Assembly: GCA_041661745.1 (NCBI GenBank)
Contig: JBAZTR010000004.1
Span: 12,961 to 76,960 of the forward strand
Source: Patescibacteria group bacterium
Lineage (GTDB): Bacteria; Patescibacteriota; Patescibacteriia; UBA9934; GWF2-40-263
Direction: 5' to 3'
DNA: 64,000 nucleotides
The notes beneath the pieces were generated by a model, which saw only the letters and a program-made list of their open reading frames with translations, was not told the origin of the DNA and did no database searches. Position numbers and translations under genes: made by a program. Shown here one piece after another: positions 2,994-39,500 of this stretch. The first letter of the stretch is position 1, and each line of letters opens with the position of its first letter.

Positions 2994-3072
2994 GTTTGAG
3001 TATGTAGTATGTAGTGGGTAGGCAATAGATCAAACTGAAACTTTTGCCTACATGCTACCTACTACATACTAC
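2994..3072. repeat. Palindromic element PE-Y (gtatgtagtatgtagtgggtaggcaatagatc … gcctacatgctacctactacatac)
   Basis: About 80-bp imperfect palindrome. Five copies in the window: 2994, 7645, 24395, 28241 and 34063. All lie immediately 5' of minus-strand gene starts. Confidence 0.85.
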
Positions 3073-7644: not shown

Positions 7645-7726
7645 GGGTTTGAGCATGTAGTAGGTAGTATGTAGGCAAAAGTTCCCGATTAGATCTATTG
7701 CCTACCCACTACATACTACATACTAA
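7645..7726. repeat. Palindromic element PE-Y (reverse orientation)
   Basis: Reverse complement of the 2994 copy: tagtaggtagtatgtaggcaaaagtt…gatctattgcctacccactacatactacatac. Confidence 0.85.
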
Positions 7727-9876: not shown

Positions 9877-10470
9877 TTAAATCTTTCCCACCAAATCAAG
9901 CCCGGGTTTTAAAGTGGCCGCCCCCGGTTTCCAGGAAGCCGGACAAACTTCACCGTTATGTTCACGGACAAAATTGGCGGCCTGAATTTTTCTTAACAAC
10001 TCGGCGGCGCTGCGACCAACACTGTTATCGTGTACTTCCATCACTTTTAGAAAACCGTCGGGATCAAAAACAAAAGTGCCACGCAAGGCCAAGCCTTCAT
10101 TGGGAATATAAACATTTAAAGCTCGAGCCAAAACCCCGGCCGGATCAGCCGCCATGGGAAAAGTTATCTTTTTAATGACCGGCGACTCGTCGTGCCAAGC
10201 CTTGTGAACAAAAACCGTATCCGTGCTAACACTGACAATTTCCGCATTGTTTTGCTTAAACGCTTCGTAATTATCGGCCAGTTCGGAAAGTTCGGTTGGA
10301 CAAACGAAAGTGAAATCAGCCGGATAAAAGAAGAGAACCAACCACCGTCCATGAAAATCCGAGATTTTCATTTTTTTGATTTTTTCATCTTGAAAAACTT
10401 CAAACTCAAAATCTTCCAATTTTGAATTAATTAAAGGCGTGTGATATTGAATATTTTGTATCTCGTTCAT
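9877..10470 (-). CDS. Peroxiredoxin (typical 2-Cys, AhpC/TSA family)
   Basis: Peroxidatic Cys motif FTFVCPTE and resolving Cys motif EVCPASW. 197 aa. Confidence 0.85.
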   Translation of the reverse strand: MNEIQNIQYHTPLINSKLEDFEFEVFQDEKIKKMKISDFHGRWLVLFFYPADFTFVCPTELSELADNYEAFKQNNAEIVSVSTDTVFVHKAWHDESPVIKKITFPMAADPAGVLARALNVYIPNEGLALRGTFVFDPDGFLKVMEVHDNSVGRSAAELLRKIQAANFVREHNGEVCPASWKPGAATLKPGLDLVGKI

Positions 10471-10502: not shown

Positions 10503-10600
10503 GTCTATTTTTCCTCTTCCCCTCTACCCCTGCCCTCTCCTTCCCAAGGAGAGGGAGATCTCGTGGGCGCTCGACGCGGGGCTGTTTGTTTTTCTTCTCT
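10503..10600. repeat. PE-C family element (cccctgccctctcc-ttcccaa-ggagagggag) plus conserved tail gctcgacgcggggctgtttgttttt
   Basis: Inverted repeat plus a tail shared with 11040 and 17860. Confidence 0.75.
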
Positions 10601-10946
10601 ATTTTCTAACAATCTCCGACTTAAAAAACTTTTCCTGAAAATTGGTCAGCTGCCTTATGTCATCATCACTTACTTTATTCCCTTCCGGCACAACAATCAA
10701 TTTGTCGTCGTCATCGTTTGTGCGGTGAATTACGGCGATGCAACGACCGGTAAAATCTTGCAACGTTTCGGTTACACCCAAAACATATACATCAATTTCT
10801 TCCCCATCCGGAGCTTTGGTGTCGGGCACGAAGCCGTAGTTTACCTCGTACACAAACCCATACTTGGGATGTAACGAACCAAGCGGACGATCAATTTTAA
10901 CTGTAACGGTTTGATTTAGATATTGAGTGTATAAATTGGCGAGCAT
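10599..10946 (-). CDS. Short family-I inorganic pyrophosphatase-like protein
   Basis: DRPLGSLHPKYGFVYEVNYGFVPDTKAPDGEEIDVYVLG matches the PPase active-site region (YPxNYGFIPxTxxxDGDPxDVLV). The track ORF to 11123 adds 59 codons that are a translated PE-C repeat, so Met at 10946 is preferred. Confidence 0.55.
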   Translation of the reverse strand: MLANLYTQYLNQTVTVKIDRPLGSLHPKYGFVYEVNYGFVPDTKAPDGEEIDVYVLGVTETLQDFTGRCIAVIHRTNDDDDKLIVVPEGNKVSDDDIRQLTNFQEKFFKSEIVRK

Positions 10947-10956
10947 ATTTTTAAAG

Positions 10957-11128
10957 TTATTTTCTTCCTCTCCCCCTCTATCCCCCTCTCCAAGTCCCTC
11001 TCCCCAACCCTCCCCCACTGCGGCAGTGAGGGAGGGAGATCTCGTAAGTGCTCGACGCGGGGCTATTTGTTTTTTAAAAAACCCTTCGTCCACTTCGTCC
11101 CCCTCAACCCCTTCGTCCCCCAAATCTT
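10957..11128. repeat. Compound PE-C element plus conserved 85-nt module
   Basis: cccctctccaagtccctctcccc…gggagggagatctcgt, then gtgctcgacgcggggctatttgttttttaaaaaacccttcgtccacttcgtccccctcaaccccttcgtcc. The second part recurs inverted at 17797..17885. Confidence 0.8.
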
Positions 11129-11952
11129 TTTCTTGGTTTATTAAATGCCAAAAAATTCTGTCCAGTCACAATACTTTTGCCGATTTTTTGTTCCAGTTCC
11201 CTTCTGGCGTTTTTGGCGATTCGCCCGCCTTTCTTGGCCGGAACCTTATTTTCCTCAAAACCCTTCGTTGCCTCGACCTCGGCAATCTGTCGCGTGGAAA
11301 GTTCGGCCAGAGCCGTGAAAACCAATTCCGCATCAGACATATGATCGCGCAAATTTTGCGTTTTAAGATTTTTTAATTTCTTATGATCTTTAACAGTTAG
11401 GTCACTCCATTCCTTATGAATAATGTTAGTTAAAATGGCGAATTCGTTTTGTTCCTTGACTTCATTATTTTTCCAATAGTCGGTCAGCTTATTTCGCACC
11501 TCTTGCCCCATCATTCGTTGTTGAATCCATTTATCACTCCGACCCATTCTTTGCCAATATTCTCTGGAACGGTTTAAAGCTTTCTCTGGATCAGATATTT
11601 CTTGAATCCTCTCGTAACCGACTTTGGCTAACCACAATTTAACCGGTTCGGCTTTTGGGCTGGGGATAGACTGAATAATTCTAAAAATTTGTTCCGGATT
11701 ACCAGCCAAGGTCTTTCTTTTTTTCCCTGTCTCGGTAATCATTTCTACCTGGGGACAGTTTGTCCCTAGGTAGTTTCCGAGTTCAACGTCCCTTTTTCTA
11801 AGTTTTTTAACATAATCAGTCGGATTATTACTTTCCGTAAGCACGGCCACAATATCAATCACGGAAAAAAACCAAGTTTCGGTTTTTTCATCATAATAAC
11901 GGCGGATTTTAAAATTTTCAAAAACAGCTAAAGATTTTTGGTTATTTGACAT
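11104..11952 (-). CDS. Bro-N domain protein (DinD / phage antirepressor-like)
   Basis: The N-terminus LAVFENFKIRRYYDEKTETWFFSVIDIVAVLTE fits the Bro-N fold. 282 aa. The 3' end runs into the repeat module. Confidence 0.55.
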   Translation of the reverse strand: MSNNQKSLAVFENFKIRRYYDEKTETWFFSVIDIVAVLTESNNPTDYVKKLRKRDVELGNYLGTNCPQVEMITETGKKRKTLAGNPEQIFRIIQSIPSPKAEPVKLWLAKVGYERIQEISDPEKALNRSREYWQRMGRSDKWIQQRMMGQEVRNKLTDYWKNNEVKEQNEFAILTNIIHKEWSDLTVKDHKKLKNLKTQNLRDHMSDAELVFTALAELSTRQIAEVEATKGFEENKVPAKKGGRIAKNARRELEQKIGKSIVTGQNFLAFNKPRKRFGGRRG

Positions 11953-12110
11953 AAAATATTTTTTATATGAACAAAAAACTTAACAAAACAACTCCCAAAC
12001 CAACGCCTGTCCCGCGCCATGTTTCTTTTGGAGTTGTCACAGAAAATATTAAATTGCTTGTTTCTATTATTGCAAAAATTTCTGTTTTTGTCAATCGTTC
12101 CTACCAACTT

Positions 12111-12215
12111 TTCTTTATTTTTTTAATCTTTCCTCCCCGCAAATCCCTCTCCCCTTACCCTCCCCCGTCGTGGCGACGAGGGAGGGAGAACTCACAGGAT
12201 CTCTGCTGATCCACC
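12111..12215. repeat. PE-C family element (ccctctcccc…cccgtcgtggcgacgagggagggaga)
   Basis: C/G-tract arms around a cgtcgtggcgacg palindrome. Confidence 0.7.
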
Positions 12216-12355
12216 CTTTAGTTCGCGCATGAGACCGTTGTTAGTAAACATGAAAAGGTAGCCGATTGCTTTATCCTCTTAATGTATCGTGCAAAGGCGA
12301 TGTTTAAGAGAGAAACAACAGGAGAAAAGAAAAGCTTGGGCGACGAACAAAGGGT

Positions 12356-12421
12356 GGTTTAAAAAAGCCCTTTCTTTCCCCACCTTTCTTTGGGCTAGCA
12401 AAGAAAGGTGGAAAGAGAAGA
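12356..12421. repeat. Standalone palindrome (ctttctttccccacctttctttgggctagcaaagaaaggtggaaagagaag)
   Basis: About 20-bp inverted arms. It sits directly downstream of the 12422..12784 gene on the minus strand and could act as a terminator. Confidence 0.5.
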
Positions 12422-12784
12422 TTAACAAGTTGTATGAAAGAGGGCGTTGATATGTTTTCCTTCAGATATTAGACGGTTGTAAACAACAAGCGCTTCTGGC
12501 GTTTTTTCTACCACCACCTCAACCCCGGCCGCGCGACAAGCAGCCAAAAAATCCTCATCAATCTCAAGTTTTCCATCCTGACCAGTACCAACAATAATCA
12601 CCTCTGGTTTATTCGACAAAAGTTTTTCTGTTTCCCACGGTCCAAGGCGATGAGAGGTGCCGAACAATTCTTTCAAGCGCGGATAATCGCGCTCTTCGAT
12701 TTGATCGCCAATAATCAAAACCTGATCGAATTTTTTGTTGTCGATGATTATAAAACCGAATTCGGTGGAATCAATATGAGGCAT
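12422..12784 (-). CDS. Mth938-like domain protein (DUF498)
   Basis: Length and motif pattern (IIVGTGQDGKL…EALVVYNRLISEGKHINALFHTTC). 120 aa. Confidence 0.6.
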   Translation of the reverse strand: MPHIDSTEFGFIIIDNKKFDQVLIIGDQIEERDYPRLKELFGTSHRLGPWETEKLLSNKPEVIIVGTGQDGKLEIDEDFLAACRAAGVEVVVEKTPEALVVYNRLISEGKHINALFHTTC

Positions 12785-12788
12785 AAAA

Positions 12789-14102
12789 TTATAAAGACTC
12801 TAAAAATTTCATTACCCGCTTATCCGGAATAAGATGCCGTAACTCCAATGGTGTACGAAGGAATATTCCCCCCAAACTGCGACAGCGACTTAGGGCCACA
12901 TAAACCTGGCCCGAAGCAAAAGCGCCATAACCCAAATCAATGGCCACGCGGTCGAAAGTTTTACCCTGACTTTTGTGAATGGTCACGGCCCAGGCCAAGC
13001 GCAGGGGCATTTGTTTAAAGCTGCCGATTTTTTCGCGTTCTAAACAGCGGGTTTTGTTGTCGTAAGCAAAGCGAAACAAATTCCAGGTGTACGCTTCGAC
13101 CACAACTTCGTCACCGTTGTCTAAGGTCACAACAATTTCCCGCTCACCAAGTCTTTTAACGGTGCCAAGCGAACCGTTAACCCAGCGATCCAAAGAATCG
13201 TTATTCAAAAACATGACGCGAGCGTTTACCTTCAAAGTCAAAGCTTCATCAGTCGGGGCGTCTTTGTCTTGAAACCGCCCCTGGGCTTCAGCTTTATATA
13301 TTTTAGCTTTTTCGGACAAAGATGACAGTCGACTAAAATTTATCCGATCAGCCAGCTTGTTGGTGGTGGTAAGGATAATGGCTTCGTCGATAACCTCCTC
13401 GTCTTCCATATCAACGCAACGCGAATTCAAGGTCTTTAAATGTTCATGCCCGGCCGAACAATTACGAACGGCGTTTAAGACTTCAATAAACTTTTTATCA
13501 CTTTGCCGATAAATCTTTTCCAGCTCAACAAATGACAGACCGTCGGTGTCCTCAAAAATTTCCTTCATGACCTTGGCCGAAAAAAAGTACGGGGTTTCAT
13601 AAACCTTGGCCAAAGCTTCGGCTTCATCATCACGCACCACCGGCGGCAGTTGGTACAAGTCGCCAATCATCACCATTTGCTTTCCGCCAAACGGTTCCTT
13701 GTTACCCATGACGGCTTTTAAAAAAACATCAATGGCATCAAAAAGATCAGCCCGGACCATGGAAATTTCATCAATGACAATGGTTTCCACTTCGCGATAA
13801 AGCTCGTTCTCGCGAGCCTGGCGGCCTTCCCTTTTGGCTTCCTTTAAAGTAATGCCCGGGCGAATCAAGAAAAACGAATGAATGGTCTGCCCCTCAACAT
13901 TCAACGCGGCCACCCCGGTGGGGGCCAAAATCACCGCTTTCTTTTTGGTGGTATCACGAAAATGCCGGAGCAGGGTTGATTTACCTGTCCCGGCGCGGCC
14001 GGTAATAAAAACCGGCCGTTTGGTGTTTTCCATTATATCCAACGCGTGGACGAAATGTTTGTTTATGTCGAGGCGAGGTTTCATGTCTGAATATTCTATC
14101 AC
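12789..14102 (-). CDS. PIF1/RecD-like superfamily-1 DNA helicase
   Basis: Walker A FITGRAGTGKST, Walker B VIDEISMV, and the C-terminal TIHKSQGKTFDRV motif typical of the PIF1/RecD family. 437 aa. Confidence 0.8.
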   Translation of the reverse strand: MIEYSDMKPRLDINKHFVHALDIMENTKRPVFITGRAGTGKSTLLRHFRDTTKKKAVILAPTGVAALNVEGQTIHSFFLIRPGITLKEAKREGRQARENELYREVETIVIDEISMVRADLFDAIDVFLKAVMGNKEPFGGKQMVMIGDLYQLPPVVRDDEAEALAKVYETPYFFSAKVMKEIFEDTDGLSFVELEKIYRQSDKKFIEVLNAVRNCSAGHEHLKTLNSRCVDMEDEEVIDEAIILTTTNKLADRINFSRLSSLSEKAKIYKAEAQGRFQDKDAPTDEALTLKVNARVMFLNNDSLDRWVNGSLGTVKRLGEREIVVTLDNGDEVVVEAYTWNLFRFAYDNKTRCLEREKIGSFKQMPLRLAWAVTIHKSQGKTFDRVAIDLGYGAFASGQVYVALSRCRSLGGIFLRTPLELRHLIPDKRVMKFLESL

Positions 14103-14210
14103 ATTTTTAAAACCCCTTTGTCACTTTATAAGATTAAGCCGAAGGAGATGAAATTGATGAGGGTTTTTAAAAAAAGACGGCTACTAAATTTTGTTAATCA
14201 AACAAAAAAA

Positions 14211-15125
14211 TTACTGTAAACAATGCTGCATGAATATCATTACTAAATTTAAAACTAACCGTGCAGTCTTTTCATTAGCATACTCTTTCTTAGGATGGGG
14301 GTCCCCTTTTGTTTGTCTTTCCTGCATTAAAATTGATTCAATATCTTTAAAAATTTTAACGGTAAAAGAATTATTAGGAATCAGCTCTTTTCTTTGAGCT
14401 TCTTTTATTAAAATCCCGAGATCACCCTTACCAATTTCTCCGTTAACAATTATTTGCATAAACCCCTGCAGAGCAGCGCAAGCCAAGGTGATTGAAGAAC
14501 TATAGCCTTCTTCTGTATTTTTCAAATACGCAGACGTTGCGTTTCTAAAATCACGACTAACCGGTTCCCATTTTTTATGTCCTAAACAATTTAGTACTGG
14601 CTCAAAAATTTCCTTTGTTATTTTTTCATCTTGCCGAAGGATAAAACCCTCTTTGTTTAATAAAACGTTCAAACCGAATTGATTAGAAATATCGTTAAAT
14701 AAATCTATAAAGTCGATTATACGTTCTTCTCTTAAAACACCGATATAATATGAAATTAACTCATAGAAAACATCCTGCGTTTCTTCGTGAAAAATATGGT
14801 CAAAGTCCCTCTGGGCGGCATCTGGACAACATGTTTCTATTGACTGCCAGCCGCCTTCATCTCTTAAATGTGGGCCGCCATGCTGCTGCAAATTATTACA
14901 AAATGACCTAGCTTTATTATCTTCGTTAAATTGATATATCGTTTGATGAATTCCTTTGTCAACACCGAACCAGCCTTTATTAATAAAACACAACCAAATA
15001 TTTTTTTTCTGGTTCCGGTCAATTTCATCCCAAGAACGTATGCCCAGGTTAGGACGTAAAACCTCTCGTGCGGTGGAATTAGAATGTGACCATTTATCAA
15101 ATGTCATACTTTTAATTTTTTTCAA
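14211..15125 (-). CDS. Hypothetical protein, low GC (about 38%); possible defense/abortive-infection-like
   Basis: 304-aa ORF with no motif I recognise. Compositionally AT-richer than neighbours and adjacent to the helicase. Confidence 0.35.
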   Translation of the reverse strand: MKKIKSMTFDKWSHSNSTAREVLRPNLGIRSWDEIDRNQKKNIWLCFINKGWFGVDKGIHQTIYQFNEDNKARSFCNNLQQHGGPHLRDEGGWQSIETCCPDAAQRDFDHIFHEETQDVFYELISYYIGVLREERIIDFIDLFNDISNQFGLNVLLNKEGFILRQDEKITKEIFEPVLNCLGHKKWEPVSRDFRNATSAYLKNTEEGYSSSITLACAALQGFMQIIVNGEIGKGDLGILIKEAQRKELIPNNSFTVKIFKDIESILMQERQTKGDPHPKKEYANEKTARLVLNLVMIFMQHCLQ

Positions 15126-15217
15126 TCTACTTCTTACAAATTTTTCCGTCTCCTTATCAACAAAATAAACATAACAAAACTTTTCTTAATCTATTTTCTC
15201 TCAAGATTCAGTGTAAT

Positions 15218-16162
15218 TTAAACTGCCGCCTCCGCCCGTTCTAACAACAAATTAATATCAAATCTAGCGCCGGGATCTCGCAAGTTATCATCGACCTCTC
15301 TGACTGCGTCGTAGGAAAGAAATTTAACCGCCTTATCAAGTCCTAAATATTCACTTGAAAAAGTCGGCCGTTTTAACTGTTCAAAAACTTTTATTTTTCT
15401 ATCCCTATCAGCAACGATAAAAAGTGGATAGTTAGAATTAGGGGCCAGTGTTCTTAAATCGGATAAACGCAGAATTCCGGAATAAATACTAGTTGAGTGC
15501 TCGATTTCAAAAGCCGACTTAATTGAGTTGCCAAGTTTCCAAACCGTGTCAATGTTTTTCACATAAGACGGAACATCGATCACATCGTGAAACTCCGGAA
15601 CAACAAAATCTCTAAAATTATTTCCCTCAAATGTTTTATTTTGATCGCCGGCCGGTACCCAAACATCAAAGTTTGACTTATTTCCCAGACGAATGAGGCG
15701 CCATTGAATTTCGCTGTGCTCGGTTGGGGCACGCTCGATCTTATCATCCAAAGACAGAAACGTGGAATTAAATTCCTCTGGGTTTATTTCGATTTCTTCT
15801 AATTTCTCTCCTTTCTCTAGCTTTTGAAGAAGAGAAACGAGGTCTCCATAACTAGATAGTAAATTGTTTACTTTCTTCTGGTCTATTCCCATGAAGCCCT
15901 GCGGGTGATAATTTTTTTCATACCCAAGATATTCATTCAGTTTTTCTATCTCAACATTAAACTCAACATCATTAATCATGAAGTAGATGTATTCCCAAGT
16001 TTGGCCGCCTTCATCTGTTTGCCAAAAATATTTTGCCAGCTCGTGGTTATGCACCTTCACGGCGATTTCCGCGGCTAAAATAATTTTCCCTTTTCTATAG
16101 ACCATTACATAGTCTCCTTCCTCCATTAAATCCCAATTTCTAATATTGCTTTTCCCAGGCAT
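15218..16162 (-). CDS. Hypothetical protein; C-terminal region with a possible PD-(D/E)xK-like nuclease signature
   Basis: 314 aa. The C-terminus DVIDVP…AFEIEHSTS resembles a D…ExK-type motif. This is weak. Confidence 0.3.
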   Translation of the reverse strand: MPGKSNIRNWDLMEEGDYVMVYRKGKIILAAEIAVKVHNHELAKYFWQTDEGGQTWEYIYFMINDVEFNVEIEKLNEYLGYEKNYHPQGFMGIDQKKVNNLLSSYGDLVSLLQKLEKGEKLEEIEINPEEFNSTFLSLDDKIERAPTEHSEIQWRLIRLGNKSNFDVWVPAGDQNKTFEGNNFRDFVVPEFHDVIDVPSYVKNIDTVWKLGNSIKSAFEIEHSTSIYSGILRLSDLRTLAPNSNYPLFIVADRDRKIKVFEQLKRPTFSSEYLGLDKAVKFLSYDAVREVDDNLRDPGARFDINLLLERAEAAV

Positions 16163-16347
16163 TGCCCCCCCCAGACAGCATAAGGTCGGCCGTGTGAGTA
16201 TTCCTTGAGCTTATCAACCTCATCGGGCGACAAAAACTTAGCAGCCTCCTCCACTGTTCTTTTATTTTTAATAGTTTCGTAATAGTGTCTATCAGTGTCG
16301 TGCCCACCGCCAGCCATTACGAAAAATATTTTTCTTGTTCTACTCAT
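16126..16347 (-). CDS. Small hypothetical protein (73 aa)
   Basis: ORF overlapping the start of 15218..16162 by 37 nt. There is no recognisable domain. Confidence 0.3.
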   Translation of the reverse strand: MSRTRKIFFVMAGGGHDTDRHYYETIKNKRTVEEAAKFLSPDEVDKLKEYSHGRPYAVWGGQCLGKAILEIGI

Positions 16348-16359
16348 AATTTTTCATTA

Positions 16360-16445
16360 ATTCCCCTCCATCCTCCCACTTTCAAACGAAAAGATCAACC
16401 CAATTTAAACCTCCTCCCACCTCACCCCTGCCCTACCAAAATATC
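16360..16445. repeat. PE-C-like C-tract element (ttcccctccatcctccc…cctcctcccacctcacccctgccctacc)
   Basis: C-tract words shared with the PE-C family. Confidence 0.5.
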
Positions 16446-16505
16446 CGCACCTCGCCGTCTGAAACAGAAAAATCCTGTGAAAAAATACGATTATATGCTT
16501 AAATA

Positions 16506-16856
16506 ATGAAAGATATGGAAAAGAAACTAACAATTGGTCTATTTGCTTCCGCTGTTTTAATAATGGGGTTTTTGTTTTTCCTCGCAAACAAAACAAACAT
16601 AGTCGAAAGTAACTCAGCTGAATGTTCTGAAAACCAAAAAACCCTAATAATCAATTCCACTAACACCCTACGTTTTCCAGCTCAATTTGGTTGGGAAGGC
16701 CACACGGTCTTAATTCGCAACCAAGCCGATCAACCAATTGACAGCATGTACCCAAATCAAATCTGCGATACCGACGAAGAAGGAATTTTAGAAAAAATAA
16801 CTTCGGTAAAATTCAACGGTTTAAAAATCATAGATGAAATCTGGATTAAGGAATAA
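16506..16856 (+). CDS. Small secreted/membrane-anchored protein
   Basis: N-terminal signal/TM (KLTIGLFASAVLIMGFLFFLA). 116 aa. Confidence 0.45.
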   Translation: MKDMEKKLTIGLFASAVLIMGFLFFLANKTNIVESNSAECSENQKTLIINSTNTLRFPAQFGWEGHTVLIRNQADQPIDSMYPNQICDTDEEGILEKITSVKFNGLKIIDEIWIKE

Positions 16857-16917
16857 ATATCTTTCACAAACCTTCCGAGAGACCGGGAGGTTTTTTAAAT
16901 TAACAAAAATCCAATCA

Positions 16918-16946
16918 TTGACAAAAACCAATTTCTCCCCTACTCT
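16918..16946 (+). promoter_or_regulatory. Sigma70-like promoter ttgaca-N17-tactct for the alpha-CTD-like gene
   Basis: ttgaca at 16918 and tactct after a 17-nt spacer. GGAGGA Shine-Dalgarno sits 4 nt before ATG 16977. Confidence 0.5.
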
Positions 16947-16976
16947 GCCCACATCAAACCGGGTTCTGGAGGAAAT

Positions 16977-17282
16977 ATGTCCGACCAGTTTTATGGACTC
17001 AACGACCGAGAGTTGGAACTTCTTCTGAAGAGCGTGGACGACTTCAAAATGTCGACCCGACTCAGAAACTGCTGCGAGCACGCTGGGGTGGGATGGGTGT
17101 GGCAGATGGTCAAGCTCAACAAAGCCGAGCTGCTCGCCGAAGAGCCGCGGCGCTTCGGTCCCAAGTCGATCAAGGAGATGGAGGAACTTCTCTTGCCTAT
17201 CGGTCTTTCCATGGGCCGCAACTTCACCAGGGAGCAGCTGACGTTCCTCAACGGCTGTTCCAATCCGGCCGGTACGGCCTAA
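16977..17282 (+). CDS. Stand-alone RNA polymerase alpha-subunit C-terminal-domain (alpha-CTD)-like HhH protein
   Basis: STRLRNCCEHAGVGWVWQMVKLNKAELLAE-PRRFGPKSIKEMEELLLPIGLSMG aligns to E. coli RpoA alpha-CTD [54 protein letters not shown]. GC-rich, 101 aa. Confidence 0.65.
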   Translation: MSDQFYGLNDRELELLLKSVDDFKMSTRLRNCCEHAGVGWVWQMVKLNKAELLAEEPRRFGPKSIKEMEELLLPIGLSMGRNFTREQLTFLNGCSNPAGTA

Positions 17283-17372
17283 CCACATCTCGCTCTCCAC
17301 TGTTTTCTGGTGGAGTTTTTTAAATCTCTCAAAAAAAAATAAAACCTCAGCAGTGCTGAGGCAGAAGTCAGT
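17283..17372. terminator. Bidirectional intrinsic terminators between convergent alpha-CTD-like genes
   Basis: ctccactgttttctggtggag+T6 for the plus gene. cctcagcagtgctgagg followed on the minus strand by ttttattttttttt for the minus gene. Confidence 0.7.
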
Positions 17373-17385
17373 GACGAACGGACGA

Positions 17386-17718
17386 TCAGGTCCGTCGGGC
17401 GTTGAGGGCATGCTCGAGGCCACGGAAGGCTCGGCTGAACTCGCGAGCCCCCTCGATGAGGCTCGGGTGGTCCAGGGCTTCCACCTTGGCGGCGATCTCA
17501 GGGTCGTCCGGGATCTGGGGCAGGCCGAGCCGGTTGAGCTGGCGGTTGATGCAGCGCCAGGTGTCTTGGCCGTAGCCGCGCCGGTGAGCGAGGTCGCGAC
17601 GGGTGAGCTGGGTCACATCGCCGGCCGTGCAGCAGTGGTGGCGCGCGGCGAGGTAGTTGACGAGGTTGCGATCGAAACCGGCTTCGACAAGCAAAAGCGA
17701 GGCGGAATCTTGACACAT
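17386..17718 (-). CDS. Stand-alone alpha-CTD-like HhH protein (paralog)
   Basis: NLVNYLAARHHCCTAGDVTQLTRRDLAHRRGYGQDTWRCINRQLNRLGLPQ follows the same alpha-CTD pattern, including a Cys pair. GC-rich, 110 aa. Confidence 0.6.
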   Translation of the reverse strand: MCQDSASLLLVEAGFDRNLVNYLAARHHCCTAGDVTQLTRRDLAHRRGYGQDTWRCINRQLNRLGLPQIPDDPEIAAKVEALDHPSLIEGAREFSRAFRGLEHALNARRT

Positions 17719-17796
17719 GTAATCTCCGGGGTTGGGGGCGACAAAAGGTTTGTATCAAAAAAAACAAAATTGATCAACTTGCTTGGGAGTTTTTTA

Positions 17797-17885
17797 ATTT
17801 AGAAAAGGACGAGGGGTTTGAGGGGGACGAAGAGGACGAAGTGTTTAAAAAACAAAAAGCCCCGCGTCGAGCACCGAAGGACAGC
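17797..17885. repeat. Conserved 85-nt module, inverted copy of 11040..11128
   Basis: Its reverse complement reads gtgctcgacgcggggctttttgttttttaaacacttcgtcctcttcgtccccctcaaacccctcgtcc. Confidence 0.8.
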
Positions 17886-18115
17886 CCGGCTGAAGCGGCC
17901 CTTACCTTCAGTTGGTCGGCGAGCTATGTTCGAGTGCAGCCCCGCAACTTGCTTGACTTAACAATCGAGCAAGGTGCAGGGGCCAGCGAGTTAGCGAGCC
18001 GTGGCCGCTGAAGGCGGTTAGCTGTCCGAGGAGCGGAGACAGGGGCAGTGTTTCTTTTGCTGTGTCCACCGAAGCTCGGCGAAGGAGGATAACTTTTCTT
18101 TGCGACAAAGAAAAG

Positions 18116-18760
18116 TTAATAAGAAGACTCCCTTAAACACTTTCGAAATTTTCTAAAATCAGGACAATGTAAAGCCACCAATTGCCAAAAAGCGCGCGAA
18201 TGATTTTTGTGCGGAATATGCGCCAGCTCGTGCACCACGACATAATCAACAACTTCCAGCGGTTGAAGAATTAATTTCCAACCAAAGTTAAGATGATTTT
18301 TGTGGCTGCACGAGCCCCAGCGTTTTTGGGCGCTGTTAATTTTTATCGAAGTAAAATTCACTCCCATTTGTTTAGCATACAAAGTGGCCCGTTCGGTAAT
18401 TATTTCTTTGGCTTCCTGTTTATACCAAGCAGCCATTTTAATTTTAGCTTTAGGCAAAAACTTTTGGGGAAAAAGTAAATCGCCTTTTAGCTCGATCTTT
18501 TTAACTTTAGAAATTTTTAAGGGATAACTTTCCCCCAAGTACCAAAACACTTCCCCGTCGACGAATTCTTTTGGTTGTGACTTGGGGCGATTTTTAACGG
18601 CGACAATTTTCTTTTGAATCCAGGACATTTTATCTTGCACTAATTTTTCAATATAAACTTCCGAAACTCGCTGGGGTGCCCGAATTATCAAAACCGCCTC
18701 GGGAGTTATCTCCAGGCTGATAGTGCGGCGGTTGGAACGGATGATTTTTGCGGTTTCCAT
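18116..18760 (-). CDS. M48-family / DUF45 (YgjP-like) zinc metallopeptidase
   Basis: HELAHIPHKNHS zinc-binding motif near the C-terminus. 214 aa. Confidence 0.7.
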   Translation of the reverse strand: METAKIIRSNRRTISLEITPEAVLIIRAPQRVSEVYIEKLVQDKMSWIQKKIVAVKNRPKSQPKEFVDGEVFWYLGESYPLKISKVKKIELKGDLLFPQKFLPKAKIKMAAWYKQEAKEIITERATLYAKQMGVNFTSIKINSAQKRWGSCSHKNHLNFGWKLILQPLEVVDYVVVHELAHIPHKNHSRAFWQLVALHCPDFRKFRKCLRESSY

Positions 18761-18779: not shown

Positions 18780-18960
18780 AATATATTTTATCCTCACCAG
18801 TGCCCCCCCCGTTTCCCCTCACCCTTACCCTCTCCCTGCCAAGATCAGATGGGAGAGGGGGTGGTGTTATTTCGTCACAGGGGATTCCCCTCCCCCATCT
18901 GCTTTTTTAGCAGGGGGAGGGGTTAGGGGAGAGGGGCCAACAACACGAACGGGGCGGCGC
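18780..18960. repeat. Compound PE-C palindromic module (inter-cassette element, copy 1)
   Basis: ccctctccctgccaagatcagatgggagaggggg … cccctcccccatctgcttttttagcagggggaggggttaggggagaggggcc. Near-identical modules at 19741..19900 and 21541..21750. Confidence 0.85.
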
Positions 18961-18968
18961 CGGCGGTC

Positions 18969-18997
18969 TGGACACAAATTCAAAGACATGCTAAAAA
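18969..18997 (+). promoter_or_regulatory. Conserved cassette promoter tggaca-N17-taaaaa
   Basis: tggaca at 18969..18974 and taaaaa at 18992..18997. The same motif with identical spacing recurs at 19903 and 20557. Confidence 0.6.
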
Positions 18998-19030
18998 AGT
19001 ATGCCCCCTTTTAGAAAAAGGAAAGAAACC

Positions 19031-19720
19031 ATGCAGGACACCATTAAGCATCTTCTCCTTATTGCCCGACTCACAGCACTGGCCAACAAGGTCAACGGAG
19101 TGATCACCGATAAAAGGCAGGAAAAGACGATCACAAAGCTGATCATGGGGGGATTGGTTCGCACTATCCTCTGGGGCGTGCTCTGGTACGTTCCACTCTG
19201 GCTTCTGGGGGACCCTTCGTTCCTTATGAAGCTCCTCTGGGCCAACCTGATCGTCAGCGCGATGCTCTTCGTTGTGCACGCAGTTGTTCCAAGCAACGTG
19301 ATCACTCGAAGGATGCAGCGGCAAAAGATTAAGACGAAAGGACCTATGGCGATCTTCGGTCTGTTCATTGTCATCTTCTTCATGCCCACAGCATTACTCT
19401 TCGCGGTGAAGGCGGGCGACCAGTACCAGGAGGTCTTGGCCGGCAAAATCCTGCGCGACGACCGGGCCACGCTCTTTTCGCGAAACGGACATCTGATCAA
19501 ACTCGTTGAGGAGTATTTTGTGAGGTCTGGAAAAGAGATGGACAAAACCGTCATGGATCAGGTCTGGGTGCTGGAGCAGGAGCTGCTCGACTTTTCCGAG
19601 CGAACTGGCGAGCTCGGCGAAAGCAACGAAATCACCTGGCCGGAGACCGAGCCTTTCCTCAGAAGAGTTGAGAGGCTGATCGACGAACTCACTGTCTTGA
19701 CTGGCAACACTTCCTCTTAA
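19031..19720 (+). CDS. GC-rich cassette gene 1: membrane protein (3–4 TM) with cytoplasmic C-terminal domain
   Basis: The track ORF starts at 19001, inside the promoter. Met at 19031 after AAGGAAAG is preferred. TM segments are LVRTILWGVLWYVPLWLL, LLWANLIVSAMLFVV and IFGLFIVIFFMPTALLFAV. GC is about 58%. Confidence 0.55.
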   Translation: MQDTIKHLLLIARLTALANKVNGVITDKRQEKTITKLIMGGLVRTILWGVLWYVPLWLLGDPSFLMKLLWANLIVSAMLFVVHAVVPSNVITRRMQRQKIKTKGPMAIFGLFIVIFFMPTALLFAVKAGDQYQEVLAGKILRDDRATLFSRNGHLIKLVEEYFVRSGKEMDKTVMDQVWVLEQELLDFSERTGELGESNEITWPETEPFLRRVERLIDELTVLTGNTSS

Positions 19721-19742
19721 CCCTCACCTGAGGGATTTTTTA
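19721..19742 (+). terminator. Cassette terminator cctcacctgagg + T-run
   Basis: Conserved hairpin (atcctca-cc-tgaggat) plus a T-tract after each of the three cassette genes, at 19721, 20484 and 21511. Confidence 0.6.
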
Positions 19743-19900
19743 TTCCCTCTCCTTCTGACGGCCATACCCCTCACCCCCTGCCCCTCTCCCTGCCAAGATC
19801 AGAGGGGAGAGGGGTTGTAAACTTTGTCACGAAAAGTTCCCCTCCCCCATCTGCTTTTTTAGCAGGGGGAGGGGTTAGGGGAGAGGGGCCAACACATGAG
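19741..19900. repeat. Compound PE-C palindromic module (inter-cassette element, copy 2)
   Basis: Near-identical to 18780..18960. Confidence 0.85.
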
Positions 19901-19902
19901 GG

Positions 19903-19931
19903 GAGGGCTTTCTGGACACAAACCAAAAACA
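19903..19931 (+). promoter_or_regulatory. Conserved cassette promoter tggaca-N17-taaaaa
   Basis: Same motif and spacing as at 18969. Confidence 0.6.
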
Positions 19932-19981
19932 ATGTTAAAAACACAAAAGTCGGCAAGCCTCTCGGCGGTGCGGAGGGAAAG

Positions 19982-20434
19982 ATGAAAATCGAACTAACCA
20001 CTCGTATGAGCGTACGTGTGGTCACGGGCGATCTGTCGGCAGACGTCCACCTCGAGGATCGTCGTTTGAAAGCACTGATTGCCCTCGCGTATAAATTCAA
20101 GGGTGAATGCGTCACCCTTGTCATCGATCCGATGATGGAAGAGGAAGCGACCTCGATCATCGACTCGATCGCGGGTCTCAACGGTGAGGGAGCCGACCAG
20201 ACAATCAACGGCCGACGCCTGGATGTGCACGAGCTCAGGGTTGATTGCGGAAACCAGCGCGGTATTGTCGTGAACCCCCACAACCCGAGATGCGATCTGC
20301 TTCTCCTCATGAGCATCGCAATCAAATCAGAACAGCTCACCGTCGAACTGCCGCCAACCGACACCATGGCCGAACTCGTCGACCGAATCTCGGTCTACCC
20401 CTTCCCGCACAAGGAAAGGGTCATGCCAGAATAA
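19982..20434 (+). CDS. GC-rich cassette gene 2: hypothetical soluble protein (150 aa)
   Basis: GGAGGG Shine-Dalgarno 5 nt upstream. GC about 60%. No domain recognised. Confidence 0.55.
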   Translation: MKIELTTRMSVRVVTGDLSADVHLEDRRLKALIALAYKFKGECVTLVIDPMMEEEATSIIDSIAGLNGEGADQTINGRRLDVHELRVDCGNQRGIVVNPHNPRCDLLLLMSIAIKSEQLTVELPPTDTMAELVDRISVYPFPHKERVMPE

Positions 20435-20483
20435 CTTAGCCACGCTGTAGCTCGCCACGAGCGAAGGCGGGACGCCACCCTCT

Positions 20484-20509
20484 CGATCCTCACCTGAGGA
20501 TCTTTTTAT
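20484..20509 (+). terminator. Cassette terminator (gatcctcacctgaggatc + T5)
   Basis: Conserved hairpin plus T-tract. Confidence 0.6.
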
Positions 20510-20550
20510 TTCTGGCTGGTCTCCTACTCTCCCAGCTTCCTAGTCTCCTA
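20505..20550. repeat. PE-T family fragment (ctcctactctcccagcttcctagtctcctaaca)
   Basis: Shares ctcctag/cctagtctcc words with the elements at 22166, 33533 and 41294. Confidence 0.5.
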
Positions 20551-20556
20551 ACACTC

Positions 20557-20585
20557 TGGACACAAATCCAAAACTATGATAAAAA
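20557..20585 (+). promoter_or_regulatory. Conserved cassette promoter tggaca-N17-taaaaa
   Basis: Same motif and spacing as the other two cassette promoters. Confidence 0.6.
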
Positions 20586-20622
20586 TCTGGGTCGCAAATT
20601 CCGCGCGACTCTGGAGGATTCC

Positions 20623-21492
20623 ATGAACGTAATCCATGATGGAGAAACCGGAGGCATCCGGGTGTTCTTCGGGGAAACCGTGATCGACATCGACCCCCGC
20701 GATCCGCGCTGTCATGGGCTGCTCAACGACCGGGGGTTCATGAAGATCGCCAACATCAAGTGCGGTTCGATCTTGATCGTCTTCGGCCGGAGCTTGAGGA
20801 CGAAGACGGCCCGCATGATGGGCGAGATCATGTTCGGCTGGACCCTCACCAATTCCTCGAACTCGCAAATCGTCGCCGAAAGAGGGGTGCGTGTGAGGAT
20901 CGGCGGCTGGAAGCCCATGCCCGTGCCGCACAACTGCGATATGTTCGAGCTCCTCGAACACGCGGACGCGCTGTACTTCGACACGATGGAGATCCGAACG
21001 AAGGCTTCGGAGGTGGCAGCCAGGGCCTTGGGGCCGTTCATCATGATCCCCTTCGTTCCGCCCGAGCCGACCCCGAGCGAACTGGCCATCGCCGAGTTCA
21101 GGAGAAGGACCGGCGTGGAGCCGACTTCGGTGCTGCTCGAAGCAGAGGCCGAGGATGCTCCCGAACCACCGGTGGCGGTTCCGGCTGGCGCCGAAGCGAA
21201 CTCCCCCATCCCCGGCCTCACGCCGGAGCAGGTCAAGAACCTGATCAGGCGATGCGACGAGCTGGGGTTCACCACTCGTGTGACGAACGGCCTCAGGACC
21301 GTCGGATGTGAATTCGTCTACCAGGTGGTGGAAAAAACCGGACCCGAGACGCTCGGGGCCAAGGGCCTCGGTCGCAGGTCCAATAATGAGCTCAGGGTGA
21401 TTCTCGCCGAACTCGGGCTCAGCTTCGGCATGAACTTCACCACCGAACAGCGAGCCGCTCTCGAGCGCCTGGCTCACCAGCTGCCGCGCTGA
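20623..21492 (+). CDS. GC-rich cassette gene 3: two-domain protein with C-terminal alpha-CTD-like HhH domain
   Basis: The C-terminus TTRVTNGLRTVGCEFVYQVVEKTGPETLGAKGLGRRSNNELRVILAELGLSFGMNFTTEQ parallels ORFs 16977 and 17386. The N-terminal 200 aa have no recognisable domain. GGAGGA Shine-Dalgarno. Confidence 0.6.
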   Translation: MNVIHDGETGGIRVFFGETVIDIDPRDPRCHGLLNDRGFMKIANIKCGSILIVFGRSLRTKTARMMGEIMFGWTLTNSSNSQIVAERGVRVRIGGWKPMPVPHNCDMFELLEHADALYFDTMEIRTKASEVAARALGPFIMIPFVPPEPTPSELAIAEFRRRTGVEPTSVLLEAEAEDAPEPPVAVPAGAEANSPIPGLTPEQVKNLIRRCDELGFTTRVTNGLRTVGCEFVYQVVEKTGPETLGAKGLGRRSNNELRVILAELGLSFGMNFTTEQRAALERLAHQLPR

Positions 21493-21510
21493 TCGCCCCC
21501 CCCTCCCCTT

Positions 21511-21537
21511 CGATCCTCACCTGAGGATCTTTTTTTA
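21511..21537 (+). terminator. Cassette terminator (gatcctcacctgaggatc + T7)
   Basis: Conserved hairpin plus T-tract. Confidence 0.6.
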
Positions 21538-21540
21538 ATT

Positions 21541-21750
21541 CCCTCTCCTTCTGAGCCGTTGTACCCCTCACCCATACCCCCGTGCCGATGTCACCCCCCC
21601 CCTCACCCCTGCCCCTCTCCCTGCCAAGATCAGAGGGGAGAGAGGTTGTAGACTTTGGCACAAAAAGTTCCCCTCCCCCATCTGCTTTTTTAGCAGGGGG
21701 AGGGGTTAGGGGAGAGGGGCCAACACGTGAGGGGAGGATTGAGGAGAGGG
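21541..21750. repeat. Compound PE-C palindromic module (copy 3, extended)
   Basis: Near-identical core to 18780 and 19741, with additional C-tract arms. Confidence 0.85.
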
Positions 21751-24394: not shown

Positions 24395-24477
24395 TTAGTG
24401 GGTAGGTGTGTAGTAGGTAGTATGTAGGCAAAAGTTCCCGACTAGATCTATTGCCTACCCACTACATACTACATACT
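24395..24477. repeat. Palindromic element PE-Y
   Basis: Same orientation as the 7645 copy. Confidence 0.85.
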
Positions 24478-28240: not shown

Positions 28241-28322
28241 TTTAGGTTCGAGTATGTAGTATGTAGTGGGTAGGCAATAGATTTAATGAAACTTTTGCCT
28301 ACATACTACCTACTACGTACTA
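28241..28322. repeat. Palindromic element PE-Y
   Basis: Lies between rplJ and rplL, immediately 5' of the rplL start. Confidence 0.85.
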
Positions 28323-30734: not shown

Positions 30735-30835
30735 GTTTTTTGTTCAATTGTTCAAGTTGTTCAAGTTGTTCACTTTTGGTTTTAAAACCGATCCGATAGT
30801 GAACATTTTGAACATATGAACAATTTGAACGGATT
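30735..30835. repeat. Palindromic element (ttgttcaattgttcaagttgttcaagttgttca … tgaacattttgaacatatgaacaatttgaac)
   Basis: Tandem ttgttcaa units on the left arm and tgaaca units on the right arm. Single copy in this window. Confidence 0.6.
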
Positions 30836-34062: not shown

Positions 34063-34150
34063 GAGTATGTAGTAAGTAGTGGGTAGGCAATAGATCTAAT
34101 TGGGAACTTTTGCCTACATACTACCTACTACTTACTACAATACTACATAC
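34063..34150. repeat. Palindromic element PE-Y
   Basis: Same orientation as the 2994 copy. Confidence 0.85.
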
Positions 34151-38456: not shown

Positions 38457-39500
38457 TTATTCCCACGGCAAACCTTCTCGCCCAAACTGTCCGTAAACGG
38501 AAACCGCGCGATACCGCGGTTTCTTTAAATCCATTTTTTCGACAATGTCGTCAAGGTTAAAATTATAATTTTGTTTAACGTATTCCAAAAGAGTTCCCCC
38601 TCCCTCACTGGGGGAGGGCTGGGGAGAGGGATTTGAAGATTTGACGTCAATCATTACCGGTTCGGAACGTCCCAGAGTGTAAGTCAAAGAAACAACAGCC
38701 GAATCAGCCTTCCCTTCCTTAACCAATTGCTTGGCAACATATCTGGCCATGTAAGCTCCGGCCCGTTCGGCTCGCTGAGGATCCTTGCCAATAGGCGAAG
38801 AATCGCCGTGCGGTACCAGCCCGCCATAAAAATCCGCGGCCGCGCGTCGACCACTTACCCCAGCCTCGGACTGAAAACCTTGGGTAGAAAATTGCCCAAT
38901 GGGATTTATAAAAATTTGCGCTTGCTCGCCGCCAATAATCGGGGCTACCACACGCTCCAACAAACGGGCTTGAACATCAATCGGAGCAACGTCTGCCGCG
39001 TGACTGGCTAAAAGGGTTACGGCCGAAACTTTTTTCCCTTCCATTACCACTTGTGCTTTACCATCAGCTCCCAGCCAGTGAAACGAAGGGTCGAGTCGGC
39101 GCAAATCATCAAGACGACGAACCAAACCTTGGGCCAGAACCATAGGAAGTGGAAGAAACTCACGCGTCTCGCGGGTGGCGTAACCGTTCACGACAACCGT
39201 GTCGTACGAACCGTGTATTTTTTTTATTTCCTCGGAAGAACTTTCGATATTTACAAAAACTTCAATTTCATCAGAATAACCAATTTCGTGATACATTTGT
39301 TTGGCCAACGAGGCCACGTCAAAATCGGCCGTGGAATTAACTTCCCCGCCAACCATAACCATGCCGTGTGAACCCAAAACTTTAATGTCCAAACGGCTGT
39401 CCGGATCGCGCCGCAAATATTCATCAACAATACCGTCGGCGATTTGATCGCAGATTTTATCAGAATGTCCGGCACAAAGTGCTTCAACGGTTTTCGACAT
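38457..39500 (-). CDS. metK: S-adenosylmethionine synthetase (bacterial type) with in-frame PE-C insertion
   Basis: GHSDKICDQIADGIVDEYL N-terminus. About 14 extra residues (SNPSPQPSPSEGGG) are encoded by the PE-C repeat at 38593..38640. Confidence 0.8.
   Translation of the reverse strand: MSKTVEALCAGHSDKICDQIADGIVDEYLRRDPDSRLDIKVLGSHGMVMVGGEVNSTADFDVASLAKQMYHEIGYSDEIEVFVNIESSSEEIKKIHGSYDTVVVNGYATRETREFLPLPMVLAQGLVRRLDDLRRLDPSFHWLGADGKAQVVMEGKKVSAVTLLASHAADVAPIDVQARLLERVVAPIIGGEQAQIFINPIGQFSTQGFQSEAGVSGRRAAADFYGGLVPHGDSSPIGKDPQRAERAGAYMARYVAKQLVKEGKADSAVVSLTYTLGRSEPVMIDVKSSNPSPQPSPSEGGGTLLEYVKQNYNFNLDDIVEKMDLKKPRYRAVSVYGQFGREGLPWE
38593..38640. repeat. PE-C element inserted in-frame within metK
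   Basis: ccccctccctcactgggggagggctggggagaggg lies inside the metK reading frame. Confidence 0.75.

Follow-up and report, generated by a model that had tools for sequence, protein, structure and literature searches.

Short conserved extragenic blocks that combine as mosaics with palindromic units at gene ends are known as REP, BIME and ERIC sequences in E. coli and its relatives. Small intergenic repeats of another kind, the Correia elements of Neisseria, are MITEs that carry terminator or promoter functions. Here we describe a short DNA block, hereafter the module, that occurs three times within 7.3 kb of the chromosome of an uncultured member of the Patescibacteria and is a genuine repeat. 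The DNA analysed, hereafter the window, is a stretch of 64,000 nucleotides.

The module resembles REP, BIME and ERIC sequences in being a short extragenic block that forms mosaics with palindromic units, occurs in either orientation and sits at gene ends, in a genome similarly rich in several intergenic repeat families. It differs from them in its three local copies in ~85 kb, its lack of sequence relation, the absence of a nearby RAYT-type transposase and its confinement to one Patescibacteria lineage. Correia elements and Rickettsia palindromic elements (RPEs) offer a second likeness through the palindromes beside the module, as the neighbouring PE-C hairpins, and possibly the long palindrome P3 described below, show mobile-palindrome behaviour, with in-frame insertions in metK. 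The module departs from these elements in lacking inverted termini of its own, a target-site duplication and, in the DNA searched, dispersed copies, and the interior of P3 is unique.

TIGR arrays are built of two alternating 8–12-nt repeats with variable 9-nt spacers, in units that recur 5–15 times beside a Nop-domain Tas gene (Faure et al. 2025, PMC12045711). The module is like them in coming from a CPR bacterium, in its 9-nt length scale and in its short tandem units (PMC12045711). We rejected this assignment because the module carries four near-identical 9-mers with no spacers, and annotation of the neighbourhood gave no match to a Nop domain or Tas.

A three-copy mosaic repeat

The three copies share a 27-nt core, G(T/C)GCTCGACGCGGGGCTnTTTGTTTTT, at 10566–10593(+), 11048–11074(+) and 17848–17874(−), and GCTCGACGCGGGGCT is exact in all of them (10569–10583(+), 11050–11064(+) and 17858–17872(−)). 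The full module, consisting of the core, a T6A3-6 tract and four 9-nt C-rich units, is found only at 11048–11118(+) and 17807–17874(−), hereafter copies 1 and 3. An extended motif, CTTCGTCCnCTTCGTCCCCCTCAA, is likewise limited to these two (11084–11107(+) and 17818–17841(−)), against an expected count of 0 in 100 shuffles. Copies 1 and 3 are 88.7% identical over 71 columns (E=1e-15), with one indel of 3 nt and two of 1 nt, while copies 1 and 2 are 90.7% identical over 43 nt (11032–11074 versus 10551–10593); the longest exact run common to module copies is 17 nt. In alignment, copy 1 is a chimera whose left portion matches copy 2 and whose right portion matches copy 3. An nhmmer scan of the window found these three copies and no more. 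The initial annotation, which described an inverted 85-nt module with one shorter copy, was right about the repeat, but homology extends over ~71 nt, not 85–89 nt.

All three copies occupy extragenic-type positions at gene 3' ends, with PE-C hairpins or P3 adjoining. Copy 1 (11048–11118, +; core 11048–11074, T6A6 11070–11081, four 9-nt C-rich units 11084–11119) overlaps the end of the minus-strand Bro-N gene, taking in its final 5 codons and TGA stop (11104–11106). The shorter copy 2 (10551–10593, +) consists of GAGGGAGATCTCGTGG and the core at 10566–10593, without the 9-mer half, and comes to within 5 nt of the stop codon of PPase (10599–10601, minus strand). Copy 3 (17807–17874, −; core 17848–17874, a T-tract/AAA, four 9-nt C-rich units 17807–17843) lies between P3 and the putative promoter of a gene for an aCTD-like (alpha-CTD-type) protein. 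This candidate promoter (17749–17777, −; TTGATC, 17 nt, TG-n-TACAAA) was recognised by eye and falls below the scanner threshold; the 9-mer array of copy 3 sits at about −60 to −100 relative to it. A PE-C hairpin with a 13-bp stem (11008–11036), followed by AGATCTCGTAA, adjoins copy 1, and another with a 10-bp stem (10533–10555) adjoins copy 2. That the module always abuts a PE-C hairpin, as had been proposed, is true of these two copies but not of copy 3, whose core forms an arm of a 210-nt GC-rich palindrome.

C-tract arrays accompany both hairpins: one at 10965–11016 precedes the hairpin near copy 1, and one at 10519–10545 overlaps the 5' arm of the hairpin near copy 2. Such arrays are enriched in the window (12 versus 0.4 in shuffles), and CCCTT-type arrays of 9–10 nt occur in the relatives L008 (5835–5881), L094 (7223–7281) and L091 (13534–13639). 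Judged by its sequence, the 9-mer half of the module (CCCTTCGTC type) is one case of this clade-wide class of intergenic C-tract arrays.

Searches for further copies covered ~85 kb (the window plus ~20 kb of flank) of a roughly 1-Mb genome, and none was found in the ~78 kb outside the 7.3-kb region; the module is thus provisionally restricted to its local neighbourhood. Exact-pattern scans for the core gave no match in a genome contig collection, JGI metagenome contigs or IMG/VR, and the single IMG/VR match to the 9-mer pattern, in high-GC coding sequence, was judged to be chance. A three-copy nhmmer profile run against 102 loci (1.4 Mb, six relatives included) returned only marginal matches (E 0.14–10), all generic C-tract arrays, and detected no homologue in those six relatives. 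Distant blastn of P3 and the module against phage and plasmid collections found nothing, and Rfam gave no match for any copy or for P3, either at the gathering threshold or at E<=5.

A long palindrome at copy 3

P3 is a rod-like imperfect palindrome of 210 nt (17847–18056) located 60 nt downstream of the YgjP stop, in the orientation of the YgjP gene. Its 5' foot, AAGAAACA-CU-GCCCCUGUC, pairs with the 3' foot GACG-C-GGGGC-UUUU-UGUUUUUU, and the core of copy 3 lies entirely within its 3' arm. The folds of the two strands have minimum free energies of −96 and −104 kcal/mol, with z = −5.0 on each. P3 thus folds equally well on both strands, which marks it as a palindrome at the DNA level and not a strand-specific RNA. 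A second copy of its interior was absent from the window, the 102 loci and the phage and plasmid collections. A small conserved hairpin motif, CCTTCGCnGnGCTnCGGnGGACAC (18062–18085, −), lies between the YgjP stop and P3 and recurs between genes in two relatives, twice in L088 and also in L094. Folding of copy 1 predicted a hairpin inside the module (AAGUG...CACUU), which was dropped because copy 3 does not conserve it.

The base of P3 has the features of a bidirectional Rho-independent terminator placed just past a gene. A GC-rich 9-bp helix (GCCCCUGUC with GACG-C-GGGGC) is followed immediately by UUUUUGUUUUUU (U5GU6), and a matching A-tract lies upstream of the helix. Ordinary minus-strand terminators of this genome (16868–16899, 17295–17324 and 12347–12372) have this same ending of stem, T5-6 and AAA. 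Unlike intrinsic terminators, which span 20–40 nt, the P3 hairpin is a rod of about 190–210 nt, far from the compact form of a stem of at most about 20 bp with a loop of 3–8 nt. A consensus terminator scan called no terminator at any copy, P3 included. In structure, P3 resembles an intrinsic terminator that is oversized and bidirectional, set behind a YgjP-like gene, and terminator activity is predicted at copy 3 only.

Copies 1 and 2 depart further from the terminator pattern. Each has the 3' foot of the stem and the T-tract but lacks the pairing partner, and faces away from the flanking genes. Their T-tract is on the plus strand, opposite to every flanking gene, and they cannot terminate transcription of any of these; a pure terminator reading therefore covers one copy in three. 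Of the three options offered by the initial annotation (recombination site, terminator module or small RNA), the terminator is nonetheless the best fit, through the GC-rich helix and U5GU6 of copy 3.

Synteny breaks beside each copy

We compared the locus with six relatives, using PIF1 and YgjP as anchors; peroxiredoxin (Prx) is a poor anchor, being spread across phyla. Bro-N, PPase, PIF1, DUF498 and Prx are conserved genes of this neighbourhood whose order is shuffled between genomes. YgjP is immediately beside PIF1 in L090 and L008, and Bro-N, PPase, Prx and DUF498 lie within the same neighbourhood in L094 and L096. The order runs PPase to Bro-N in L094, Bro-N to PIF1 in L096 and Bro-N to PPase in the window. 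By synteny, the lineage-specific segment between PIF1 and YgjP extends over 14103–18115 and holds genes for an Abi_C-like protein, an REase-like protein (NmeDI_C), p16506 and two aCTD-type proteins, together with a metK 3' relic (16405–16461), copy 3 and P3. Since only this stretch of about 14.1–18.1 kb is lineage-specific, the inverted pair does not bound an acquired island.

Every copy lies at a gene end that coincides with a synteny break. The nucleotide match between Bro-N and L096 ends at 11149, 30 nt from copy 1. Where copy 2 adjoins the PPase stop, relatives carry different DNA. The site behind YgjP, where copy 3 lies, is occupied by PIF1 in L090 and L008, by IS200/605 in L088 and by a defence island in L091.

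These breaks, and the geometry of the copies, might suggest recombination sites: the inverted copies 1 and 3 could drive a 6.7-kb inversion, and the direct copies 1 and 2, 481 nt apart, the excision or integration of a PPase cassette. The region is indeed heavily rearranged among relatives, with the order of Bro-N and PPase swapped between L094 and the window. Yet the called genes of the window and its flanks include no Pfam match to an integrase, invertase or transposase, nor does Pfam annotation of the whole window reveal the adjacent serine or tyrosine recombinase of a Hin, Gin or shufflon-type system. For E. coli RecA a 17-nt exact run, the longest shared here, is short for efficient homologous recombination. 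YgjP and PIF1 are oriented to each other just as they are in L090 and L008, so the segment is not currently inverted. The NCBI-derived window, an ENA contig and two Logan contigs agree on a single arrangement, one Logan contig being continuous through copies 1 and 2; with two to four assemblies per junction, each junction had one arrangement and no both-orientation variants were seen. PPase is a housekeeping gene throughout Patescibacteria, which speaks against a cassette. An integron cassette would involve an IntI integrase and an attC site, an imperfect palindrome of R''(RYYYAAC)...R'(GTTRRRY) after each cassette, and was rejected on PPase's housekeeping status, the lack of an integrase and the absence, by eye, of an R''/R' pair. 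Recombination at these copies is therefore highly improbable. The proposal of a recombination site flanking acquired genes is not supported, because most of the segment consists of ancestral genes found in L090, L008, L094 and L096, only about 14.1–18.1 kb is inserted, no recombinase or transposase is among the called genes, target-site duplications are absent and all available assemblies show one arrangement.

We consider it unlikely, too, that the module is the end of a MITE-like or RPE-like mobile palindromic element, with P3-type palindromes mobile in the clade and copies 1 and 2 the decayed ends that persisted once elements had inserted, been excised or given way to PE-C palindromes. Palindromes do enter genes in this clade: PE-C-type palindromes lie in frame inside metK at differing positions in the window, L098, L088 and L091, and a ~230-nt nested palindrome splits a Y1 transposase gene in L088. 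The equal folding of P3 on both strands and its place at an insertion hot spot behind YgjP are further points in favour. Against this stand the unique interior of P3 and the mere three, all local, copies of the module. Homology between copies 1 and 3 also runs beyond P3 into the 9-mers, outside the palindrome. No target-site duplication is present at 11048/17874, where the outer flanks TCTCGTAA (11040–11047) and CGAAGGAC (17875–17882) are not direct repeats; an inverted pair of this kind, with no transposase among the called genes and no dispersed copies in the ~20 kb of flank or the public collections searched, does not make a TIR-bounded element or MITE. Nor is the segment missing as a unit in relatives, since PIF1, DUF498 and Bro-N are kept in L008, L090, L094 and L096.

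Two further readings concern RNA and protein binding. With every flanking gene on the minus strand, inverted copies would be transcribed into mutually complementary RNAs, and a minus-strand RNA from copy 3 (the YgjP 3' UTR or a discrete P3 RNA that stops at the U-tract, plus read-through) might pair with the Bro-N/PPase/Prx mRNA at copies 1 and 2 and regulate it in trans. RNAduplex energies for copy 3 are −122 kcal/mol with copy 1 (shuffles −42) and −53 kcal/mol with copy 2 (shuffles −24), and conservation of the core is perfect across the three copies. As an alternative, copies 1 and 2, whose plus strand bears a T-tract with the terminator ending typical of this genome, might end short C-rich cis-antisense RNAs over the G-rich 5' leaders of PPase and Prx. 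However, complementarity follows automatically from any inverted repeat, no promoter-like plus-strand site lies upstream of copies 1 or 2, and the P3 stem ties up the core of copy 3, whose 9-mers lie past the terminator. No Rfam family matches, and the relatives offer no homologue for a covariation test; a consensus fold of the Bro-N leader gave no convincing structure. A function at the RNA level, in trans or in cis, is distinctly unlikely. The four 9-nt C-rich units, G-rich on the opposite strand, have also been considered as a predicted protein-binding array or a G-quadruplex/i-motif tract upstream of a promoter, possibly used by the free-standing alpha-CTD-type proteins encoded adjacently; the one beside copy 3 is an orphan among 5.8 billion proteins. 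The 9-nt periodicity is clear, G4Hunter-type scores of −2.3 (copy 1) and +1.7 (copy 3) exceed the |1.5| reached by 0.7% of window positions, copy 3 lies about 60–100 nt upstream of the putative aCTD-like promoter, and in L008 and L094 similar arrays immediately precede genes or extended −10-like promoters. But copy 1 overlaps the end of Bro-N with no downstream gene on its own strand, array orientation relative to genes is inconsistent, and with two long G-runs only, any quadruplex at copy 3 would be non-canonical, which leaves this role very unlikely.

Origin and meaning of the module

Our preferred reading, to which we give a probability of roughly 0.45, is that the three copies are local paralogues of intergenic "punctuation" DNA, a lineage-specific mosaic of two parts, and not the ends of an element. 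One part would be the 27-nt block, the 3' base of a terminator stem with its T-tract, which closes P3 at copy 3. The other would be T6A3-6 with the four 9-nt C-rich units, drawn from the clade-wide C-tract array class. P3, acting as an oversized bidirectional intrinsic terminator, would keep transcription of YgjP from reaching the aCTD-like gene. On this view copies 1 and 2 are best seen as relics or patchwork products with a partnerless stem foot and T-tract, a fragment perhaps copied or retained as Bro-N, PPase and Prx were reshuffled, with PE-C palindromes placed alongside. We infer that the copies arose by duplication or rearrangement. Instead of being a neutral relic, the 89% match over 71 nt, set in otherwise unrelated flanks, could be due to selection or conversion.

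As lineage-specific intergenic DNA in three copies, the module alone carries little weight, and its proposed role as the frame of a mobile defence island fails. Its value is as a marker of gene-order breaks between closely related Patescibacteria, and it links an unusually long palindromic terminator-like structure to the intergenic hairpins and C-tract arrays found genome-wide. Should the palindromes be mobile or recombinogenic, they would go some way to account for the plasticity of reduced CPR genomes and for the turnover of their defence islands. A bolder version, which we regard as quite unlikely, holds that the rod palindromes with C/G-tracts (PE-C and P3) form one mobile family with the module as its junction foot, or else that YgjP 3' RNA and Bro-N/PPase/Prx RNA form a pairing circuit. 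If the first were true, the palindromes of Uhrbacteria-like Patescibacteria would seed terminators and enter housekeeping genes in frame, and their centres or feet would be points where the chromosome breaks or rejoins.

An intergenic repeat with a chimeric copy

The window, part of the chromosome of an uncultured Patescibacteria bacterium, has housekeeping genes all along. An ENA contig shares 99.95% identity with it, and a Logan contig is an exact match. Its nearest relatives are Uhrbacteria-like, and no integrase or transposase is among its called genes. The genes around the repeat module lie mostly on the minus strand: Prx (9877-10470), PPase (10599-10949), Bro-N (11104-11952), DUF498 (12422-12784), PIF1 (12789-14102), Abi_C-like (14211-15125), REase-like (15218-16162), an aCTD-like orphan (17386-17718) and YgjP-like (18116-18760), with aCTD (16977-17282) on the plus strand.

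An initial annotation described an 85-nt module at inverted loci; exact-match scans, alignment and BLAST bear out the repeat, with corrections. The 15-mer GCTCGACGCGGGGCT has exact copies at 10569(+), 11050(+) and 17858-17872(-), and the 24-mer CTTCGTCCnCTTCGTCCCCCTCAA is confined to 11084(+) and 17818-17841(-) (0 in 100 dinucleotide shuffles). By alignment and BLAST, copy 1 (11048-11118(+)) and copy 3 (17807-17874(-)) are 88.7% identical over 71 columns, their longest exact common run being 17 nt; the annotated 85 nt exceeds the homology by ~15 nt. Positions 11032-11074 (copy 1) and 10551-10593 (copy 2) are 90.7% identical over 43 nt. The alignment reveals a 27-nt core, G(T/C)GCTCGACGCGGGGCTnTTTGTTTTT, common to all three copies, and a chimeric copy 1. 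Its copy-2-like left part comprises a hairpin of the C/G-tract family PE-C, AGATCTCGT and the core, and its copy-3-like right part the core, T6A6 and four 9-mers, CTTCGTCCn/CCTCAACCC. A profile search found no fourth copy in the window or ~20 kb of extra flank, and no relative compared carries a homologue.

The right half has wider company. C-tract arrays (at least four C3-6 runs, loops of 3-7 nt) are strongly enriched in the window, 12 against 0.4 in shuffles, and relatives also carry them, including CCCTT-type arrays of 9-10-nt period (L008 5835-5881, L094 7223-7281, L091 13534-13639). The right half is therefore a member of a clade-wide class, within which only the near-identity between copies 1 and 3 sets it apart.

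Copy 3 at the foot of a 210-nt palindrome

Folding of 17840-18060 predicts one long hairpin of 210 nt with hardly any branching, P3 (17847-18056). Its minimum free energy is -104 kcal/mol for the plus strand and -96 for the minus strand (z = -5.0 each). Because both strands fold, P3 is an imperfect palindrome of the DNA itself rather than an RNA structure confined to one strand. In the predicted fold, the foot pairs AAGAAACA-CU-GCCCCUGUC with GACG-C-GGGGC-UUUU-UGUUUUUU, and the 3' foot plus U-tract is the entire core at copy 3. Ordinary terminators of the same genome (16868-16899, 17295-17324 and 12347-12372 on the minus strand) share this ending of stem, T5-6 and AAA. P3 lies 60 nt beyond the YgjP stop and upstream of a putative promoter of the aCTD-like gene, TTGATC-17-TGnTACAAA, read by eye. 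On the most economical reading, P3 would be an oversized bidirectional intrinsic terminator. Nothing related to its interior turned up in the window, 102 loci or the phage and plasmid collections, and P3 has no Rfam match.

Copies 1 and 2 read, on the plus strand, C-tract array, PE-C hairpin, AGATCTCGT, core and T-tract; the claim that the module always abuts a PE-C hairpin holds for these two and is wrong for copy 3. At both, the core has no pairing partner, folds are non-significant (z between -1.1 and -2.3), no terminator or plus-strand promoter is called, and the T-tract points away from every flanking gene. The Bro-N reading frame enters copy 1 by five codons, then stops.

Gene order and the origin of the module

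In relatives, YgjP is followed by PIF1 (43-nt gap), DUF6629 and TspO (L090, YgjP 78% aa), overlaps PIF1 (L008, 70%), or has IS200/605 directly behind it (L088, 79%). On one contig (L091/L094) YgjP is followed by a defence island, after which come PPase, Bro-N and, further on, Prx. L096 (PIF1 85%, Bro-N 90% aa) runs DUF498 ... Bro-N, PIF1, m317, its nucleotide homology to the window in Bro-N ending at 11149, and L098 (PIF1 76% aa) has MetK then PIF1. Bro-N, PPase, PIF1, DUF498 and Prx therefore belong to a conserved gene neighbourhood and are shuffled between genomes; only ~14.1-18.1 kb is lineage-specific. Since the genes between the inverted copies are ancestral and keep their ancestral orientation, the pair delimits no acquired island, and the proposal that the copies border acquired genes is not supported. 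Each copy does lie within 5-60 nt of a gene end at which synteny breaks. Within the lineage-specific segment, a metK 3' relic (16405-16461(-)) encodes FFQTARCGYFGRAGVRWEEV* with 85% nt identity to L098 metK; the intact metK (38457-39500, minus strand) is divergent (41-43% aa identity to relatives). The syntenic metK has been lost.

We tentatively favor, at a probability of about 0.45, a lineage-specific mosaic of terminator foot and C-tract array, functional in P3 at copy 3 and relic at copies 1 and 2. Copy 3 would work as part of the P3 terminator, and copies 1 and 2 may have been copied or retained amid local rearrangements and PE-C palindrome insertions. That the copies are instead ends of mobile palindromes is unlikely; there is no target-site duplication. 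Action through RNA-RNA pairing or small RNAs is a little less probable again: a transcript over copy 3 would be complementary to those over copy 1 (-122 kcal/mol) and copy 2 (-53), but such complementarity is automatic for any inverted repeat. A protein-binding or G4/i-motif array is improbable; G4Hunter-type scores are extreme (-2.3 at copy 1, +1.7 at copy 3), but the copy 3 array lacks four long runs. Recombination sites are the least probable: no recombinase was found among the called genes, all available assemblies share one arrangement (n=4 across copies 1 and 2, n=2 across copy 3), and one Logan contig is unbroken across copies 1 and 2. Neither a TIGR array nor an integron attC site fits, their defining features being absent. 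The module is real yet ordinary for such a repeat-rich genome, and falls among the known intergenic mosaic or terminator-associated repeats.

Surrounding palindromes and genes

By alignment, conserved metK holds in-frame PE-C-type C/G-tract palindromes whose position varies by genome (window 38594-38640, encoding SSNPSPQPSPSEGGG; L098 6010-6065; L088 and L091 metK). They resemble Rickettsia palindromic elements and suggest that PE-C-type palindromes may be mobile. At L088 5780-6010, a ~230-nt nested palindrome with termini GTTCTTCCGACTTTC...GAAAGTCGGAAGAAC and PE-C-like inner arms breaks an IS200-type Y1 transposase gene directly behind YgjP. A small conserved hairpin motif, CCTTCGCnGnGCTnCGGnGGACAC, without Rfam match, recurs between genes both here and in relatives (window 18062-18085(-); L088 143-165, 3924-3946; L094 9519-9541; 0 expected by chance). 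Several intergenic hairpin families have arms of short periodic oligomers (GTAGTAKG, CTAGNCTC, GTTCAAGTT; window 2999-3070, 7652-7724, 24406-24476, 28251-28321, 34064-34136, 41298-41383, 30742-30830); L098 has a CCCCAAG version, so the habit is clade-wide.

Among the genes, aCTD and the aCTD-like orphan are small, convergent and GC-rich, encoding free-standing RNA polymerase alpha-CTD-type proteins, the latter without relatives among 5.8 billion proteins. In a cassette-like array (18800-21740), three 132-nt double-hairpin repeats (18823, 19775, 21606) and a 36-nt motif, CTGGACACAAA..ATGnTAAAAA (18962, 19906, 20550), lie ahead of three GC-rich plus-strand genes, one of them encoding an alpha-CTD-domain protein; L088 and L090 carry homologous aCTD genes upstream of YgjP. 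Against PADLOC, the Bro-N-type protein hits the candidate defence family PDC-S13 (E=2e-118), and its gene has a consensus promoter that is strongly conserved, TTGACA, 17 nt, CAATAAT, then AAGCAA (window 11953-12094(-); L096 9030-9177; L093 1290-1420; L094 8448-8620), with an additional leader hairpin and T-tract (CAACTCC...GGGAGTTGTTTT) in the closest relatives. A 97-nt Rfam tRNA (45532-45628(+), 50.6 bits), absent from ARAGORN output, may be intron-containing or otherwise atypical. Over 20.8 kb, all 10 differences from the ENA contig fall within 84 nt (1565-1648) of a TrmB-family gene, a local hypervariable or recombined patch.

The surroundings are thus more interesting than the module itself: the in-frame metK palindromes, the rod-like 210-nt palindrome, and the rearrangement and defence hot spot behind YgjP.
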